UHGV virus genome: UHGV-0119950
DNA length: 53,290 nt
DNA from: a virus
Strand: one strand, 5' to 3'
The notes under the pieces: model-generated
What the model saw: only the letters and a program-made list of their open reading frames with translations
Told to the model about the DNA's origin: nothing
Database searches by the model: none
Part shown: piece after piece, positions 16,826 to 53,240 of the stretch
How the letters are laid out: each line of letters starts with the position of its first letter
Numbering within the stretch: position 1 is the stretch's first letter
Program-made: the position numbers and the translations under genes

Positions 16826-17082
16826 TGGATCAACTTCTGCAATACGCCACCAATCGGATTATAGAACTGGAAAACCTTCTGCTGGTGAATGTTGAGGAAA
16901 CGGTCTGGCCAGCAGAGGTTCAGATGGTTTTTAGTCAAATCGAAAACGCCGGGAGTTTCCCGGCGCACCACCAGCGCCGATTGCAGCACCACATCAACAG
17001 AATGTGGCTGGAAAAAATACCGGTTACTTCGATTATTGCCGCAGCGCGCTCGCTGGCAGATGCAATGGAGAAATACGCGTGA
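16822..17082 (+). CDS. hypothetical protein
   Basis: 86 aa ORF. Confidence 0.4.
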   Translation: MMDQLLQYATNRIIELENLLLVNVEETVWPAEVQMVFSQIENAGSFPAHHQRRLQHHINRMWLEKIPVTSIIAAARSLADAMEKYA

Positions 17083-19160
17083 GAAATAGCGAAATCATTG
17101 TTGATAATTTTGCTGGTGGCGGCGGTGCTTCCACTGGAATTGAGATGGCGACTGGCCGCAGCGTGGACATTGCGATTAACCACGATCCGAATGCCGTTGC
17201 GATGCACACGACAAACCACCCCAATACACTGCATTATTGCGAATCTGTCTACGATGTCAGGCCGAAGGTAGCGACCGCCGGGCGTCCGGTGGCGCTGGCG
17301 TGGTTCTCGCCGGATTGCCGTCACTTTTCAAAAGCCAAAGGTGCGAAGCCGGTAGAGAAAGCGATCCGGGGTCTGGCCTGGGTAGTTCTGCGCTGGGGGC
17401 TGGATGTAAAACCCCGGGTGATGAAACTGGAGAACGTCGAAGAATTTAAAACGTGGGGCCCTTTGCTCGCTGGTGAAATGAGGCCAGACCCGGCCCGTGC
17501 TGGAGAAAATTTTGAGGCGTTCATTGGTATGCTGACTACTGGCATCCGGGCTGACCACCCGGCACTGGCGGAGTGCTGTGAATTTCTGGGTATTTCTCTT
17601 GATAGTGAAGACGCCGCGAGGCTGATCAAAGGGCTGGGCTACATCGTCGAGTATCGCGAGTTGCGCGCCTGCGACTACGGTGCGCCGACGATCCGCAAGC
17701 GATTCTTTATGATTATGCGTTGTGACGGGAAACCGATTGTGTGGCCTGAGCCAACACATGGCGATCCGAAATCACCGGCTGTCCAGGCTGGTAAGCTGGC
17801 ACCGTGGCGCACAGCTGCGGAGTGCATAGACTGGACAATTCCGGCTCCATCGATATTCGATCGCAAAAAGCCGCTGGCAGAAAATACCCTTAAGCGCATC
17901 GCGCGCGGCATCCAGCGATTTGTTATCGACAGTGCGTCGCCGTTTATCGTGAAGTGCAACCACACCAGCAGCCGTTCAAGTTATGATTGTTTCCGTGGGC
18001 AGCCACTGGAAGAACCCCTGCAAACGATCACGAAAAAGCATGGTTACGCCGTCGCAGTACCACATCTGACGAAGTTCCGTACCGGCGCAACCGGGCAGGA
18101 AGTCACCGAACCTGTACCGACTGTAACAGCTGGCACGTCGGCGCGCCCGGGTGGGAATGGTCATGCGCTTGGTATCGTTGAAGCTGCGCTGACTCCGTTC
18201 CTGGCTGGTAATGGCGGCAGTGAGTACCAGGCTAAGCCGCGCCCGCTGGATAAACCAGCTCACACTATACTGAAACAATCCCGGGCATGTGTCGTTGCGC
18301 CGGTTATCGCCCGACAGTTTGGCGCCAGCACCGGCCACCGCGCAGATGAGCCGAACGCGACTATTACCGCTGGTGGCGGCGGTAAATCGCAACTTGTTAC
18401 ATCGACACTGATCCAGATGGGATACGGGGAAAGGCCAGGTCAGGAACCTCGCGTTCTCCAGATCGAAAAACCGTTAGGGACAGTAACCGCTGGTGGAAAC
18501 AAGTTCGCCGTGGCCAGCGCATTTCTGGCGAAGCACTACGGCGGCAACTATACGGGACCGGGCGTCGGGCTGGATGAGCCGACTCACTCAGTTACGACGG
18601 TTGATCATCATGCGGTTGTTGCGGCACATCTAATGGTGAACAACACCGGGCATCCTGGCGGCTCCGTGGACTCTCCAGCGCATACCGTTACAACAGGAAA
18701 TCACCATGCTGTAGTGACTTCTCATCTTGTGCATTTGCGAGGGTTCTGCAAAGACGGTCAAAAAATGGATCAGCCGGTGCCAACGATTACCGCCGGAGGC
18801 CAGCATGTTGGGGAGGTGAAAACCACTCTGGCAGTTGAGCACTACAACGAACAGCGCGCGCAACAGACGTTGGCGTTCCTGCGTGAATATTGCGGCGAAG
18901 ATTGTACCGGGCTGGTGGATATCGACGGGATCACATATCGTATTGTTGATATCGGAATGCGCATGCTGCAACCGCATGAGCTTTACCGCGCGCAGGGCTT
19001 CCCGGACTGGTACATCATCGATCGGGATTATCGCGGCGTGAAGTATGCAAAGGATAAGCAGGTTGCCCGCTGCGGTAATGCTGTGCCGCCACCGTTCGCC
19101 GAGGCTCTGGTAAGGGCCAATTTACCCGAACTTTGCCAGCCGAAAGAAATGGCAGCGTAA
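17079..19160 (+). CDS. DNA (cytosine-5) methyltransferase with eight tandem repeats in the variable region
   Basis: Motif I DNFAGGGG, motif IV SPDCRHFS (Cys present, PDC not PCQ), motif VI LENVEEF, motif IX QGFPDWY, motif X CGNAV; GTG at 17079 with GGAG upstream chosen over track start 17004. Confidence 0.8.
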   Translation: MRNSEIIVDNFAGGGGASTGIEMATGRSVDIAINHDPNAVAMHTTNHPNTLHYCESVYDVRPKVATAGRPVALAWFSPDCRHFSKAKGAKPVEKAIRGLAWVVLRWGLDVKPRVMKLENVEEFKTWGPLLAGEMRPDPARAGENFEAFIGMLTTGIRADHPALAECCEFLGISLDSEDAARLIKGLGYIVEYRELRACDYGAPTIRKRFFMIMRCDGKPIVWPEPTHGDPKSPAVQAGKLAPWRTAAECIDWTIPAPSIFDRKKPLAENTLKRIARGIQRFVIDSASPFIVKCNHTSSRSSYDCFRGQPLEEPLQTITKKHGYAVAVPHLTKFRTGATGQEVTEPVPTVTAGTSARPGGNGHALGIVEAALTPFLAGNGGSEYQAKPRPLDKPAHTILKQSRACVVAPVIARQFGASTGHRADEPNATITAGGGGKSQLVTSTLIQMGYGERPGQEPRVLQIEKPLGTVTAGGNKFAVASAFLAKHYGGNYTGPGVGLDEPTHSVTTVDHHAVVAAHLMVNNTGHPGGSVDSPAHTVTTGNHHAVVTSHLVHLRGFCKDGQKMDQPVPTITAGGQHVGEVKTTLAVEHYNEQRAQQTLAFLREYCGEDCTGLVDIDGITYRIVDIGMRMLQPHELYRAQGFPDWYIIDRDYRGVKYAKDKQVARCGNAVPPPFAEALVRANLPELCQPKEMAA

Positions 19161-19166
19161 TGTATA

Positions 19167-19200
19167 ATCCCTCTCAAAGCATCGAGAGGGATTCGTTTTT
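19167..19200 (+). terminator. rho-independent terminator after methyltransferase
   Basis: Stem ATCCCTCTC / GAGAGGGAT with 8-nt loop, followed by T-run. Confidence 0.5.
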
Positions 19201-19377
19201 CTTCGGTATCTCGCGCTGCGGACTGTAGAGTTTCCCGTTAATAACTATCCAGCTACCCTTAATCCACTTCGTGACCTGCTGTCGATTAACGCCCATATGT
19301 CTGGCGAACTCTGATTGATTTCCCTGGTGGTGAATAGCAATGTAATCGGTCAAGGTAAGAGCATTCATGTTATTCAC
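19174..19377 (-). CDS. Cro-like HTH DNA-binding protein
   Basis: 67 aa; HTH (QSEFARHMGVNRQQVTKWIKG); start overlaps stop of upstream acidic-protein gene. Confidence 0.5.
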   Translation of the reverse strand: MNNMNALTLTDYIAIHHQGNQSEFARHMGVNRQQVTKWIKGSWIVINGKLYSPQREIPKKNESLSML

Positions 19378-19840
19378 CTTTTACAGCAGGGTTGACGATC
19401 AGATAGCTGGTACCGTGCTCGTCTTCCATTTCTACAGCGTCGAAACCAAGATGGGCGGCAGCGCGACCTCTCAGGCGCTGCATTTCCCAACTAGCTGCTG
19501 CAAACTCATCCGCTGAATCAGTCCGAGGTGACAGAATATCAGCAAACGCGTCGTCACACTCATCGTCAGCCAGTGCGTATGCCAGCGCTTCCAGTTGTTC
19601 TTCGTCTGCTTCAACTTCACTACGCAGGAAACTTATGACATCAGCGATACGGTCGTGTAAGTCTCCATTATCTGCGATGATTTCAACGTTGTAGCTGTAA
19701 ACAAAATTACCGTGAGAGCCTGCAACATCGAAATCTGAGCAAGCAAAGATACCATCAAAAATATTGTCACCAGACATTGCGAAAGCGCCAACTTTGATTA
19801 CTGGAGCGGTGTTTTCGTATGAGCCGTGAAACAGTTTCAT
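19370..19840 (-). CDS. hypothetical strongly acidic protein
   Basis: 156 aa; long acidic stretch (EVEADEEQLEALAYALADDECDDAFADIL); co-oriented with downstream HTH gene. Confidence 0.5.
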   Translation of the reverse strand: MKLFHGSYENTAPVIKVGAFAMSGDNIFDGIFACSDFDVAGSHGNFVYSYNVEIIADNGDLHDRIADVISFLRSEVEADEEQLEALAYALADDECDDAFADILSPRTDSADEFAAASWEMQRLRGRAAAHLGFDAVEMEDEHGTSYLIVNPAVKGE

Positions 19841-19873
19841 GATGATTGTCCATTTTGTTTGTGTAAGTGTATT

Positions 19874-19893
19874 GTAATCAATAAATGATTACA
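19874..19893. promoter_or_regulatory. perfect inverted repeat, candidate operator
   Basis: TGTAATCA-ATA-TGATTACA (8-bp arms, 4-nt spacer) about 35 bp upstream of the acidic-protein gene start. Confidence 0.4.
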
Positions 19894-20072
19894 TTCAAGT
19901 GACTTTTATCACGGATCGGAAAGACATTGGTACGTGTATAATGATAAAAAATGAATACCGTAGGGGATTGCATGTCAGACTGGAATATCGCAGCAAAATA
20001 GAAAGAAGAGCAGGACAAGGTTAATGTTGATCTGGCCGCCAGCGGCGTTGCGTATAAAGAGCGCCTGAACAT

Positions 20073-20231
20073 GCCGGTTGTTGCTGAAGTGGTGATGCGT
20101 GAGCAGCCGGAGCACTTGCGCGACTATTTCATTGAGCGCGTCAGATACTATCGTGAGCAAAGCCTGAAGCTACCGAAATCATCCGATCCGCGCTACATCG
20201 AAATGGCTGAGCAGAACGCCAAAAAGTAACT
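20073..20231 (+). CDS. hypothetical small protein (52 aa)
   Basis: Not in ORF track; short ORF ([30 protein letters not shown]...) ending just before a strong terminator; coding status uncertain. Confidence 0.25.
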
Positions 20232-20248
20232 GAACATGGAATGAACTC

Positions 20249-20271
20249 AACCCGCTTCGGCGGGTTTTTTT
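20249..20271 (+). terminator. rho-independent terminator
   Basis: AACCCGCTTCGGCGGGTT hairpin followed by TTTTTTT. Confidence 0.6.
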
Positions 20272-20342
20272 ACGCCTGAAATTTGTGTCTACGGGTTAAC
20301 AATTCGTGCTCTTAAAACGTTGATCATTTCGTTTTATAGGTA

Positions 20343-20362
20343 TACTGTATAAAAATACAGTA
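20343..20362. promoter_or_regulatory. LexA box (SOS operator)
   Basis: TACTGTATAAAAATACAGTA, exact CTGT-N8-ACAG palindrome, about 20 bp upstream of dinI-like start. Confidence 0.75.
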
Positions 20363-20380
20363 TACGCAATGGAGGCCACT

Positions 20381-20614
20381 ATGAAAGTTGAGTTAACTAT
20401 TGATCGAACAAAGAAACTTCCTGATGGTGCAGTGCCAGCACTTGAAAAAGAATTGCTTAAACGACTGAATAATCAGTATGAGAATTGCAGCCTGACAATC
20501 CGTCGCGCCGGATCAGATGGACTGAGCGTTTTCGGTGGCGATAAGGACGATAAAAAGAAAATTGAAAAGATCCTCCAGGAGACCTGGGAAAGCGCTGACG
20601 ACTGGTTTTACTAA
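20381..20614 (+). CDS. dinI: DinI-family protein
   Basis: MKVELTIDRTKKLP...KIEKILQETWESADDWFY matches E. coli DinI as I recall it (C-terminal ILQETWESADDWF); RBS GGAGG; LexA box upstream. Confidence 0.8.
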   Translation: MKVELTIDRTKKLPDGAVPALEKELLKRLNNQYENCSLTIRRAGSDGLSVFGGDKDDKKKIEKILQETWESADDWFY

Positions 20615-50176: not shown

Positions 50177-51262
50177 TTACGTATTTACGATATTTTTCTT
50201 AACTTTTGCAGCGCGCGGCGCTAAATGCCGCGCCACTTTCCTTGAAGGTTCTTCTACAATGTGGAAAAGTATATGCGAAATGGCGAAACTTACGCCAACA
50301 ATCAACAAAACATTTGAGAATCCAAGTTTAGGATTATAAAATGGCACGGGAAGGTATTTTTTAAGAAGTACAGTTATTACTATTGTATGTACAAGATAAA
50401 GCGAATAAGAAACGTTGCCCATCCAGTCAAGGATTTTATTTAATTTTATCTCTCTTGTTGTTTCGAATATTGAAAGAGAAAGCAAAAGCATAAAAGCATA
50501 AACACCACAATTTAGCAATCCGTGACCGCCATTATATCCAGACATATAGAAGAATATAAATGCAAAAACAGAAATAAAGAGTAACGGCGCTGATATATTT
50601 TTGAAAGAGTGAATTTTTGCATAGTTATAGATCTGATAGATAACCATCCCAGCGACGAACTCAAGTAGCATTGGCGATGCGAACAGTTTTAGCACCCATG
50701 GGGCGCTAGGGTCGTTTAATGTTGAATATCCACTAAGATTAATCTCACCATTATATAGTATTCCCAAAATAGATACTGAAGCAATTATTATTGCAGTGCT
50801 AATATAAAATCTATTCTTCCAGGAAATCGACATCGCAAATGAAAATATGATGTAAAAAATTATCTCATACGTCAGAGTCCAGGCAGTTGATATCACCGAA
50901 TAACCGAACCAAGGGGCTGATTTCTCAAAGTTTAAGTTAATAAAGAAAAGGGCTTTTAGATAATTAATATCTATCGGCTTTGTGAATATTAATGCGCATG
51001 ACACCAGACATATAAAATAAACAGGGTATAATCTAAAAAAACGCTTCACAATAAATGAACGAACAGAGGAGTCCTTTTCTGTTGACAACATGATTACAAA
51101 TCCACTTATCATGAAAAAAAGATCCACTCCTATGTATCCATAGTTAAACAATATGTTACCCAAATTGCTCTGAGCATAAATATTGTTCAATTCTCCACGG
51201 GCATGATATAAGACGACAAGCAAAGCAGCTATTCCACGGAGGTATTGCAAAGAATAAAGCAT
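50177..51262 (-). CDS. acyltransferase family 3 membrane protein (O-antigen acetylase-like)
   Basis: 361 aa, many transmembrane segments; N-terminal LRGIAALLVVLYHA signature; AT-rich; convergent with tailspike. Confidence 0.75.
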   Translation of the reverse strand: MLYSLQYLRGIAALLVVLYHARGELNNIYAQSNLGNILFNYGYIGVDLFFMISGFVIMLSTEKDSSVRSFIVKRFFRLYPVYFICLVSCALIFTKPIDINYLKALFFINLNFEKSAPWFGYSVISTAWTLTYEIIFYIIFSFAMSISWKNRFYISTAIIIASVSILGILYNGEINLSGYSTLNDPSAPWVLKLFASPMLLEFVAGMVIYQIYNYAKIHSFKNISAPLLFISVFAFIFFYMSGYNGGHGLLNCGVYAFMLLLSLSIFETTREIKLNKILDWMGNVSYSLYLVHTIVITVLLKKYLPVPFYNPKLGFSNVLLIVGVSFAISHILFHIVEEPSRKVARHLAPRAAKVKKNIVNT

Positions 51263-51535: not shown

Positions 51536-51552
51536 TCATTGAGGTGATTATC

Positions 51553-51972
51553 ATGCAGTTTTTCACGCCTACAGAACCACGCCAGATAGTGTCGCTCCCA
51601 ATGTTTAGTGATCTTGTGCAATGCGGGTTTCCTTCGCCAGCCGCAGATTACGTTGAGTCGCGTATAGACCTTAACGAATTGCTGGTGCGGCACCCAAGCG
51701 CGACGTATTTCGTAAAGTCCACTGGAGATTCTATGCGTGATGCTGGAATCGGCGAGGGCGATTTGTTGGTAGTCGACAGTTCACGAAAAGCAGGGCATGG
51801 AGACATTGTCATTGCAGCGGTCGATGGTGAGTTCACAGTTAAGCGCCTGTTGCTGCATCCGGTTGTCATGCTAAAGCCTGAAAACTCTGTGTATAAACCA
51901 ATCATGATTGGGAGTGAAGACAATCTGGAGGTTTTTGGCGTCGTAACTTACATCGTGAAGTCTGCTGACTGA
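51553..51972 (+). CDS. umuD: UmuD-like protein (S24 peptidase, pol V accessory subunit)
   Basis: [18 protein letters not shown]...[13 protein letters not shown]...[17 protein letters not shown] matches E. coli UmuD as I recall it; RBS GAGGTG. Confidence 0.85.
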
Positions 51973-51974
51973 GT

Positions 51975-53240
51975 ATGTTTGCGCTCGTGGATGTGAACAG
52001 TTTTTATGCGAGCTGTGAAACGGTATTCAGGCCAGACCTCAAAGGAAGGCCGGTAGTCGTTCTCTCTAACAACGATGGCTGTGTCATTGCGCGTTCGGCA
52101 GCAGCGAAGCCCTTTGTGAAAATGGGGGAGCCCTATTTCAAACAAAAAGAGACTTTTCGCCGTCACGGCATCGTCGCGTTCTCCAGTAACTATGAGCTTT
52201 ACGCTGATATGTCGAACCGCGTAATGACAACGCTGGAAGAAATGAGTCCTCGCGTCGAAATTTACAGCATAGACGAGGCATTTTGCGATCTTACTGGTGT
52301 GAGAAACTGCCGTGACCTTACTGAGTTTGGCCGGGAGATCCGCACTACAGTATTACAGCGTACACATCTCACCGTCGGTGTCGGTATTGCGCAGACAAAA
52401 ACCCTCGCGAAACTGGCTAACTATGCGGCAAAGAAGTGGCAACGACAGACTGGCGGCGTTGTTGATTTATCGAACCTTGATCGTCAGCGTAAACTCATGG
52501 CAGTACTGCCTGTTGATGATGTATGGGGTATCGGGCGACGCATTGGCAAGAAACTTCAGGCGATGGGCATCAAAACTGCTCTTGACCTGGCTGATACAGA
52601 TGGCCGGTTTATCAGGAAGCATTTCAATATTGTGCTCGAAAGAACGGTACGCGAGCTGCGTGGTGAGCCGTGTCTGGAACTGGAAGAGTTTGCACCAGTA
52701 AAGCAGGAGATCGTCTGCTCACGCTCTTTCAGTGGTCGTATCACTGCTTACGAAGAGATACGCCAGGCGATATGCAGCTACGCATCACGCGCAGCGGAAA
52801 AGTTACGGGGCGAGCATCAGTATTGCCGGTTTATCTCCGCGTTCGTGAAGACAAGCCCGTTTGCACTGAACGAACCGTATTACGGCAACAGTGCCTCTGT
52901 GAAGCTTCTGACCCCGACGCAGGACAGCCGGGACATTATCGACGCGGCCACGCGATGCCTGGATGCTGTCTGGAAAGACGGACACAGGTATCAGAAGGCT
53001 GGTGTGATGCTTGGTGACTTCTTCAGCCAGGGCGTGGCGCAACTAAATCTGTTTGATGACAACGCACCGCGCGCTGGTAGCGAAAAACTGATGGAAGTGC
53101 TGGATCATCTCAATGCCAAAGACGGCAGAGGAACACTGTATTTCGCAGGGCAGGGCATACAACAGCAATGGCAGATGAAACGGGAGATGCTCTCACCGCG
53201 ATATACCACTCGATATGAAGACCTTTTATGTGTTAAGTGA
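51975..53240 (+). CDS. umuC: UmuC-like Y-family DNA polymerase (pol V catalytic subunit)
   Basis: 421 aa; MFALVDVNSFYASCETVFRPDL...SIDEAF typical of UmuC; follows umuD by 2 bp. Confidence 0.9.
   Translation: MFALVDVNSFYASCETVFRPDLKGRPVVVLSNNDGCVIARSAAAKPFVKMGEPYFKQKETFRRHGIVAFSSNYELYADMSNRVMTTLEEMSPRVEIYSIDEAFCDLTGVRNCRDLTEFGREIRTTVLQRTHLTVGVGIAQTKTLAKLANYAAKKWQRQTGGVVDLSNLDRQRKLMAVLPVDDVWGIGRRIGKKLQAMGIKTALDLADTDGRFIRKHFNIVLERTVRELRGEPCLELEEFAPVKQEIVCSRSFSGRITAYEEIRQAICSYASRAAEKLRGEHQYCRFISAFVKTSPFALNEPYYGNSASVKLLTPTQDSRDIIDAATRCLDAVWKDGHRYQKAGVMLGDFFSQGVAQLNLFDDNAPRAGSEKLMEVLDHLNAKDGRGTLYFAGQGIQQQWQMKREMLSPRYTTRYEDLLCVK

Follow-up and report, generated by a model that had tools for sequence, protein, structure and literature searches.

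The mechanism of AcrIF11, an anti-CRISPR ADP-ribosyltransferase, has been described in work on Pseudomonas (PMC12421852, PMC13131331). Its target residue in Cas8f is N250 in PA14 (PMC12421852, PMC13131331), and the key residues of the family are given as H-F-H-D (PMC12421852). D115/E116 of AcrIF11Pae1 lie in the same loop as D146/E147 of AcrIF11Pae2 (PMC12421852), and mutation of D146/E147 in AcrIF11Pae2 or of D115 in AcrIF11Pae1 abolished both ADP-ribosylation and CRISPR inhibition (Chen et al. 2025, PMC12421852). The helical insert of the family is poorly conserved and was suggested to set target specificity, with acidic residues of this variable region suggested to touch lysines K58/K60 of Cas7f (PMC12421852). 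A similar logic is found in AcrVA5, an acetyltransferase acting on Cas12a, in that a PAM-sensing residue is changed covalently and sub-stoichiometrically. However, AcrVA5 is unrelated to the AcrIF11 family, and chemistry, fold and target all differ.

Regulators of acr promoters include Aca5, for which the HTH_28 domain has been reported (PMC9410906). The Aca5 promoter of P. parmentieri was repressed in an E. coli reporter assay (PMC9410906). [quoted passage not shown] More broadly, acr loci are found grouped with further anti-defence genes, orphan methyltransferases among them (PMC7648647).

Here we analyzed a pair of adjacent minus-strand genes in the viral genome UHGV-0119950, the whole 53,290-nt stretch of which is referred to below as the window. 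We read the pair as a two-gene acrIF11-aca5 anti-CRISPR operon of a lambdoid prophage, in which AcrIF11 would act against Cas8f and Aca5 would repress its own operon, and we place the probability of this reading at about 85%. Operons of this kind are an ordinary, already described class in Enterobacterales prophages, Citrobacter included, as Citrobacter prophages are among the carriers reported by Pinilla-Redondo et al. (PMC7648647). The locus raises no new question.

Organization of the locus

The window is a lambdoid prophage encoding an integrase, RecET, O/P replication genes, NinB, RusA, and Q, with a response-regulator gene flanking it on the left. The two ORFs lie between the 3' end of a C5 cytosine methyltransferase gene and a theta/Hot-like ORF on the plus strand (Table 1). 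The upstream ORF encodes the strongly acidic 156-aa protein that the first-pass annotation had described, and its acidity was confirmed (pI 4.15). An HTH ORF follows directly downstream on the same strand, also as described, but its extent required revision.

As delimited mechanically, the HTH ORF is the longest possible one, spanning 19174..19377 and encoding 67 aa from a GTG start at 19377. The more plausible start is an ATG at 19368, because a Shine-Dalgarno-like AAAGGTG precedes it within the 3' end of the acr gene, the resulting 64 aa equal the length of the closest homologues, and a public contig with an identical locus is annotated with the 64-aa gene. We consider this most likely the true start. 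A single nucleotide then separates the stop of acr from the ATG of aca, so that the genes do not overlap as had initially been supposed.

A GC-rich hairpin containing a 10-bp perfect inverted repeat sits where the methyltransferase gene and aca5 converge. It is terminator-like on the plus strand, where a T-run follows it, and has no T-run on the minus strand. That it also terminates the acr-aca transcript is something we only infer.

Table 1. Positions of genes and predicted regulatory features discussed in the text
Feature	Position	Strand	Description
C5 cytosine methyltransferase gene	17004..19160	+	718 aa; Pfam DNA_methylase
Protospacer-like match	18603..18636	-	C. koseri type I-F spacer; 5'-CC PAM 18635-18636; within methyltransferase gene
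GC-rich hairpin	19166..19193	.	Convergent ends of methyltransferase gene and aca5; overlaps last codons and stop of aca5
aca5 gene	19174..19368	-	64 aa from ATG 19368; predicted HTH repressor of acr promoter
acrIF11-family gene	19370..19840	-	156 aa + TAA stop; predicted anti-CRISPR ADP-ribosyltransferase
Predicted -10 hexamer	19871..19876	-	TACAAT; sigma-70-like site; overlaps promoter-proximal arm of operator
Predicted Aca5 operator	19873..19893	.	TGTAATCA-ATAAA-TGATTACA; perfect 8-bp inverted repeat, 5-nt spacer
Predicted -35 hexamer	19893..19898	-	TTGAAT; sigma-70-like site; 4/6 consensus positions

Assignment of the acidic protein to the AcrIF11 family

A homology search and a structure prediction had been proposed at the outset as checks on the acidic protein, and both gave clear answers. 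The protein matched NCBIfam NF052490.1, an equivalog model for the AcrIF11 family of anti-CRISPR ADP-ribosyltransferases, with a score of 126.6 bits (cut-off 50; E 1.3e-36), covering model positions 1-142 of 142. Its best sequence matches in the PDB were both solved AcrIF11 structures, 6KYF (E 1.1e-11) and 8DWQ (E 2.9e-6). A database search returned 149 homologues, and PF26151 was precomputed on all 120 of those among the matches listed. An identical public protein is likewise annotated with this domain (AcrIF11_ADP_ribosyl). NCBI applies the AcrIF11 family name to several homologues at 55-69% identity, which come from Dickeya, Klebsiella oxytoca, and Pectobacterium. The match in PHROGs was to a family of unknown function only, and a PADLOC search with the protein returned nothing.

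The predicted model has the beta-sheet core of an ADP-ribosyltransferase, plus a helical insert. It is confident, with lower pLDDT (72-84) at residues 11-25, and can be superposed on solved AcrIF11. Across 38-41 aligned homologues, H5 (within LFHGS), F28, G30, F32, H43, W118, E119, Q121, R122, R124, and D140 were invariant, and E141 was at least 90% conserved. D140/E141 align with D146/E147 of AcrIF11Pae2 (8DWQ). Family model, predicted fold, and catalytic residues thus identify the 156-aa protein as a predicted AcrIF11-family ADP-ribosyltransferase.

Several features set it apart from the tested Pseudomonas members, AcrIF11Pae1 (6KYF) and AcrIF11Pae2 (8DWQ), to which it is only about 25-36% identical. 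It has 156 aa compared with 132 aa in Pseudomonas AcrIF11, and its helical insert is longer and more acidic. About 15 extra residues (residues 11-25) follow the HGS motif in the enterobacterial clade and are missing from 6KYF. The genetic context also differs, as the partner of the gene in the window is aca5, in place of aca1, aca4, or aca7.

The composition of the protein had raised the idea of a DNA mimic of the Ocr/ArdA type, acting in anti-restriction together with the neighboring methyltransferase. Ocr and ArdA are likewise small, very acidic anti-defence proteins carried by phages and plasmids, often near methyltransferases. The protein has 32 Asp+Glu and 9 Lys+Arg, giving a net charge of about -23 at a pI of 4.15. 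Its gene adjoins an orphan C5 methyltransferase gene, and anti-defence genes are known to cluster (PMC7648647). However, a search of a local Pfam-A copy gave no match for the protein at E <= 0.1, and hence no ArdA, Ocr, or other anti-restriction family. The predicted model shows an ADP-ribosyltransferase core and helical insert rather than an elongated helical mimic, and the invariant residues correspond to NAD-binding and catalytic positions rather than to a surface array of carboxylates. Ocr and ArdA share neither sequence nor fold with the protein, which has an enzyme active site. They aim at restriction enzymes, whereas its expected target is CRISPR-Cas. We consider a DNA mimic effectively refuted by the fold and by conservation of the catalytic site. 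The methyltransferase neighbor does fit the clustering of acr genes with orphan methyltransferases (PMC7648647), but this does not speak for anti-restriction activity of the protein. In kind, the first-pass annotation was correct to suspect an anti-defence module.

The HTH protein and its predicted operator

The small HTH protein was identified through published lists of Aca5 sequences (PMC9410906 supplement). By BLASTP, the 64-aa protein was 49% identical over 57 residues (E 5e-18) to the reference Aca5 of Pectobacterium carotovorum, WP_039494319.1. Identity rose to 79% (E 2e-35) with E. coli WP_012565004.1, which belongs to the Aca5 set of Shehreen et al. 2022 (PMC9410906 supplement). Pfam HTH_28 scored 25.6 bits on the protein against a cut-off of 25. 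A PDB sequence search gave insignificant matches only (LexA, Cro). As with the reference Aca5, the protein is encoded directly after the acr gene in one operon. The two differ in their recognition helices, which read NRQQVTKW in the window and DAQAVNKW in the reference. On this homology, the small HTH protein is assigned to Aca5, a family of acr-promoter repressors.

The identity of the HTH partner bears on two further proposals for the gene pair. One holds that the two genes form a toxin-antitoxin system, with an ADP-ribosyltransferase toxin and an HTH antitoxin that doubles as repressor of the genes, of the ParT-ParS, MbcT-MbcA, or Xre-RES kind. We looked for signs of type II membership, and found neither closest relatives among the toxins of such systems nor a partner antitoxin with a neutralizing domain. 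The small HTH protein is predicted to be an Aca5 repressor and not an antitoxin, and we regard a toxin-antitoxin system as very unlikely. An antirepressor module was rejected on the same assignment, the HTH protein being an Aca5-type repressor of acr promoters and not the partner of an antirepressor.

Immediately upstream of the acr gene lies the inverted repeat that had led to the suggestion of autoregulation. The repeat is real and has perfect 8-bp arms, but its spacer is ATAAA (5 nt) instead of ATA, and it starts at 19873 instead of 19874. The arms are TGTAATCA (19873-19880) and TGATTACA (19886-19893), and the coding strand reads TGTAATCA-TTTAT-TGATTACA. The region 19000-20400 has a single sigma-70-like site, on the minus strand (9/12 matches, 16-nt spacer), and the palindrome occupies the spacer between its -35 and -10 hexamers and overlaps the -10. 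Transcription from this site would start at ~19864 and give a 5' UTR of ~24 nt.

By itself, the inverted repeat is weak evidence, as shuffling the AT-rich 132-nt intergenic region under a Markov model still yielded a perfect repeat with 8-bp arms and at most 10 nt between them in ~5% of cases. It gains significance because its core, TAATCA-N5-TGATTA, occurs only once in the 53-kb window, because it lies inside the spacer of the sole promoter-like site of the region, and because homologous loci also have a palindrome in this position (see below). It shares with the published Aca5 operator the TAATCA/TGATTA core, the 5-nt spacing, and the position between -35 and -10. Its outer positions depart from the published consensus (GTAATCA compared with ATAATCA). 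A second Aca5 site (IR2) was sought in the window and not found, leaving one operator only. By analogy with these published sites, Aca5 would repress transcription at the palindrome at 19873-19893. Autoregulation by the HTH protein thus gains support from both the Aca5 homology and the operator match within the promoter.

Host and target system

Proteins identical to the 156-aa and 64-aa products are present in public assemblies, and their 90% clusters are Citrobacter koseri. The host of the acrIF11-aca5 prophage is most likely this species. We searched C. koseri for a type I-F system at the protein level using csy1 of E. coli LF82 as bait. This revealed, at 70% identity, a C. koseri Csy1 cluster of 90 sequences. 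The C. koseri assembly GCA_045742575.1 encodes a full set of cas1, cas2-3, and csy1-4 between clpA and infA, and its two arrays hold 14 and 6 repeats. The motif FGGTKPQNIS, which contains the Asn targeted by AcrIF11, is identical in PA14 (N250) and C. koseri (N251). Both the type I-F target system and the target motif are therefore present in the host species. When E. coli genomes were searched for the type I-F repeat, nearly all of them matched, owing to a solitary copy, so that the repeat was no guide to strains with type I-F.

One spacer of the C. koseri system matched the window itself. This 32-nt spacer, from the array beside cas1 in GCA_045742575.1 (locus L089), agreed with 18603-18634 at all but three of its bases (29/32; blastn-short E 2e-7), the mismatches being at positions 3, 12, and 23, of which position 3 is in the seed. 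The CC flanking the match on its 5' side is the type I-F PAM. We take the match to mean that C. koseri type I-F immunity met related phages earlier; it does not imply current targeting of the prophage. The matched segment sits right beside the acr operon.

These data bear on whether a protein with the AcrIF11 fold, still regulated by Aca5, might have a different target, such as a subunit of type I-E Cascade or another defence component. Such retargeting would be in keeping with the identity of only about 25-36% to the two tested Pseudomonas proteins. The protein also carries the 15-residue insert specific to its clade and a helical region (residues 58-112) that is divergent and very acidic, with 18 of its 32 acidic residues, and that corresponds to the proposed specificity determinant (PMC12421852). 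Acr orthologues moreover vary in range, as Citrobacter AcrIF17.2 failed against Pseudomonas I-F (PMC7648647). However, the equivalog-level HMM was passed by a wide margin, C. koseri has a type I-F system whose target motif is identical, and a type I-F spacer matches the phage family of the window. AcrIF11 is highly specific for Csy1 in vivo (PMC12421852), and most of the Aca5-linked genes tested to date inhibit I-F (PMC7648647, PMC9410906). We consider a different target unlikely. By analogy with the Pseudomonas enzymes, the 156-aa orthologue would be enzymatically active and target Cas8f.

Proposed mechanism of the acrIF11-aca5 operon

Our model for AcrIF11 acting against Cas8f under Aca5 control follows the published mechanism. 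On infection or induction, the sigma-70 promoter (TTGAAT / TACAAT) would transcribe acrIF11 and aca5, presumably early and strongly. The AcrIF11-family enzyme would then use NAD+ to mono-ADP-ribosylate the PAM-sensing Asn of Cas8f (Csy1), at N250 in P. aeruginosa numbering or N251 in that of C. koseri. Once ADP-ribosylated, the type I-F surveillance complex would lose binding of target DNA. Because the inhibitor would be an enzyme, inhibition could be sub-stoichiometric.

Docking on the lysine-rich Cas7f backbone, and not DNA mimicry toward restriction enzymes, is the probable role of the acidic helical insert (residues ~58-112), and the acidic charge of the protein may serve this docking. Aca5, as a small dimeric HTH repressor, would bind the palindrome in the -35/-10 spacer. 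The promoter would be shut off later, as Aca5 accumulates and enough Acr has been made.

The locus offers a Citrobacter prophage example of a predicted enzymatic anti-CRISPR beside an orphan C5 methyltransferase, together with a type I-F spacer of the host species against the same phage family. It is a small, concrete record of an arms race. It is also relevant to any plan to combat Citrobacter with type I-F CRISPR or CRISPR-armed phages.

Conservation across related loci

We compared 13 genomic and 73 viral loci encoding Acr homologues, some of which duplicate each other. Among the 42 other loci with an Acr at least 55% identical, 39 have an Aca5-like ORF whose start follows the acr stop by 1-6 nt, counting among the 39 one locus (L024) in which the scored aca5-like start lies upstream of the acr stop. 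Two of the exceptions among the 42 represent a Rouxiella plasmid copy, present in duplicate, in which aca5 is truncated. Acr homologues of 53% identity or less have different neighbor genes.

The position of the palindrome is also shared. In an automatic search of 34 distinct promoters, the best palindrome was centered 41.5-46.5 nt ahead of the ATG in 24, with a value of 42.5 nt for the window. Yersinia-type promoters have an imperfect GTAGTC...GATTAC at the same place.

The arms of the palindrome varied with the recognition helix of the adjacent Aca5. Helices of the form xxQQVTKW, including that of the window, occur with TAATCA-N5-TGATTA, and the arms of a Ewingella locus (L002) are identical to those of the window. 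The helix DAQAVNKW occurs with TAGTCA-N5-TGACTA; in full, the operator of the reference-type loci (L010/L042 and relatives) is ATAGTCA-N5-TGACTAT, compared with GTAATCA-N5-TGATTAC in the window. The helix RPQKVQ(D/E)W is paired with ATAACCGA-N3-TCGGTTAT, and RRDVVGNW with TGTACAT-N7-ATGTACA. Recognition helix and half-site thus change together, the pattern to be expected of an HTH protein that recognizes the palindrome.

This pairing of helix and half-site (TAATCA, TAGTCA, TAACCGA, TGTACAT, and others) could constitute a specificity code that prevents cross-repression of co-resident acr operons. A separate proposal is that the enterobacterial AcrIF11 clade, with its 15-residue insert and its highly acidic helical insert, has a target range different from, or broader than, that of the Pseudomonas enzymes. 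A clade of broader range might also modify type I-E Cascade or another defence protein. We regard these bolder readings as quite improbable.

A megablast search of 19100-20000 against deposited phages and complete E. coli genomes gave no match, and the cassette is missing from these at the DNA level. Using tblastn against phages, only 7 records were recovered (Erwinia, Yersinia, and Moraxella), all of them labeled hypothetical. The chief value of the assignment is for annotation, as the closest homologues of the two proteins, in C. koseri records and phage genomes, now carry the name 'hypothetical protein' and could be renamed AcrIF11-family anti-CRISPR and Aca5.

Covariation of Aca5 and its operator

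Across the promoters upstream of acrIF11 homologues (loci L001-L052), the recognition helix of the HTH repressor Aca5 and the half-site of its predicted operator varied together. Five pairings of helix and half-site were distinguished, while the centre of the palindrome remained constant at about 42-46 nt from the acr ATG. These paired changes suggest, at the level of sequence, the existence of several Aca5/operator subtypes that would be mutually orthogonal.

Aca5 recognition helices and the operator half-sites paired with them
Recognition helix	Half-site
QQVTKW	TAATCA
DAQAVNKW	TAGTCA
RPQKVQ(D/E)W	TAACCGA
DRQKVQVW	GTAGTC...GATTAC
RRDVVGNW	TGTACAT

Comparison of the window with loci L002-L045 showed a conserved 5' leader (..ATCGAAACGAGATTGAGG..AAAATG) common to the majority of the related acr promoters. 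The corresponding stretch of the window (19841-19870) carries the leader ACACTTACACAAACAAAATGGACAATCATCATG, which is unrelated to that of its relatives, downstream of an operator of the same type. An unrelated leader next to a same-type operator points to a putative recombination event directly downstream of the operator.

An operator-like repeat was also retained next to a truncated repressor gene. Rouxiella badensis plasmid pSP2 carries two copies of the acrIF11 homologue (L005 and L006) in inverted orientation. In both, aca5 ends after 14 codons (MTLSEYINKNFSEN*), and the operator-like repeat TGTAATCA-N5-TGATTGCA is present upstream of acr. The pSP2 homologue may be an acr gene left without its repressor through loss.

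Features surrounding the acr-aca5 operon

Features of the window neighbouring the operon and at its right end
Feature	Position	Strand	Remarks
C5 cytosine methyltransferase gene	17004-19160	+	Pfam DNA_methylase
Protospacer-like match	18603-18636	-	within the methyltransferase gene
GC-rich hairpin	19166-19193		10 bp, perfect; T-run downstream (+ strand)
Second inverted repeat, TTTTATCA / TGATAAAA	19904-19911 and 19942-19949		8 bp, perfect; arms 30 nt apart
DNA polymerase III theta / phage P1 Hot-like gene	19972-20229	+	divergent from the acr promoter
Acyltransferase-3 family gene	50177-51262	-	right end
umuD/umuC-like pair	51544-53240	+	right end

The theta/Hot-like gene contains an in-frame TAG at codon 10 (19999-20001), and its open reading frame is limited to the C-terminal 52 aa, starting from 20071. 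This portion still matches Pfam DNA_pol3_theta (E 4e-15), and on the public contig, a deposited assembly contig with an identical acr gene, the theta/Hot-like gene is likewise called as 52 aa only. It is either a fresh pseudogene or a gene whose product is shortened at the N-terminus. The second inverted repeat flanks a stretch just upstream of this gene and encloses an extended -10-like sequence, TGTATAAT; the repeat may be a chance match.

On the other side of the operon, the hairpin where the methyltransferase gene and aca5 converge looks like a terminator of the former. It overlaps, on the opposite strand, the stop and final codons of aca5, such that the C-terminal residues of the Aca5 encoded in the window (..ESLSML) are hairpin-encoded.

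The methyltransferase itself is unusually long (718 aa in the window; the gene call on the public contig gives 693 aa). Its Pfam DNA_methylase match is broken into three stretches, with approximately 350 residues separating the N-terminal motifs from the C-terminal stretch (624-704). The target-recognition region may be large or multiple.

Within this gene, 29 of 32 bases were identical to a type I-F spacer of Citrobacter koseri (GCA_045742575.1, from an array beside cas1), with mismatches at spacer positions 3, 12, and 23. Together with the flanking 5'-CC PAM, this match is evidence that the type I-F system of C. koseri took up spacers from the phage family represented by the window.

At the right end of the window, the acyltransferase-3 family gene and the umuD/umuC-like pair are either prophage cargo or host flank.
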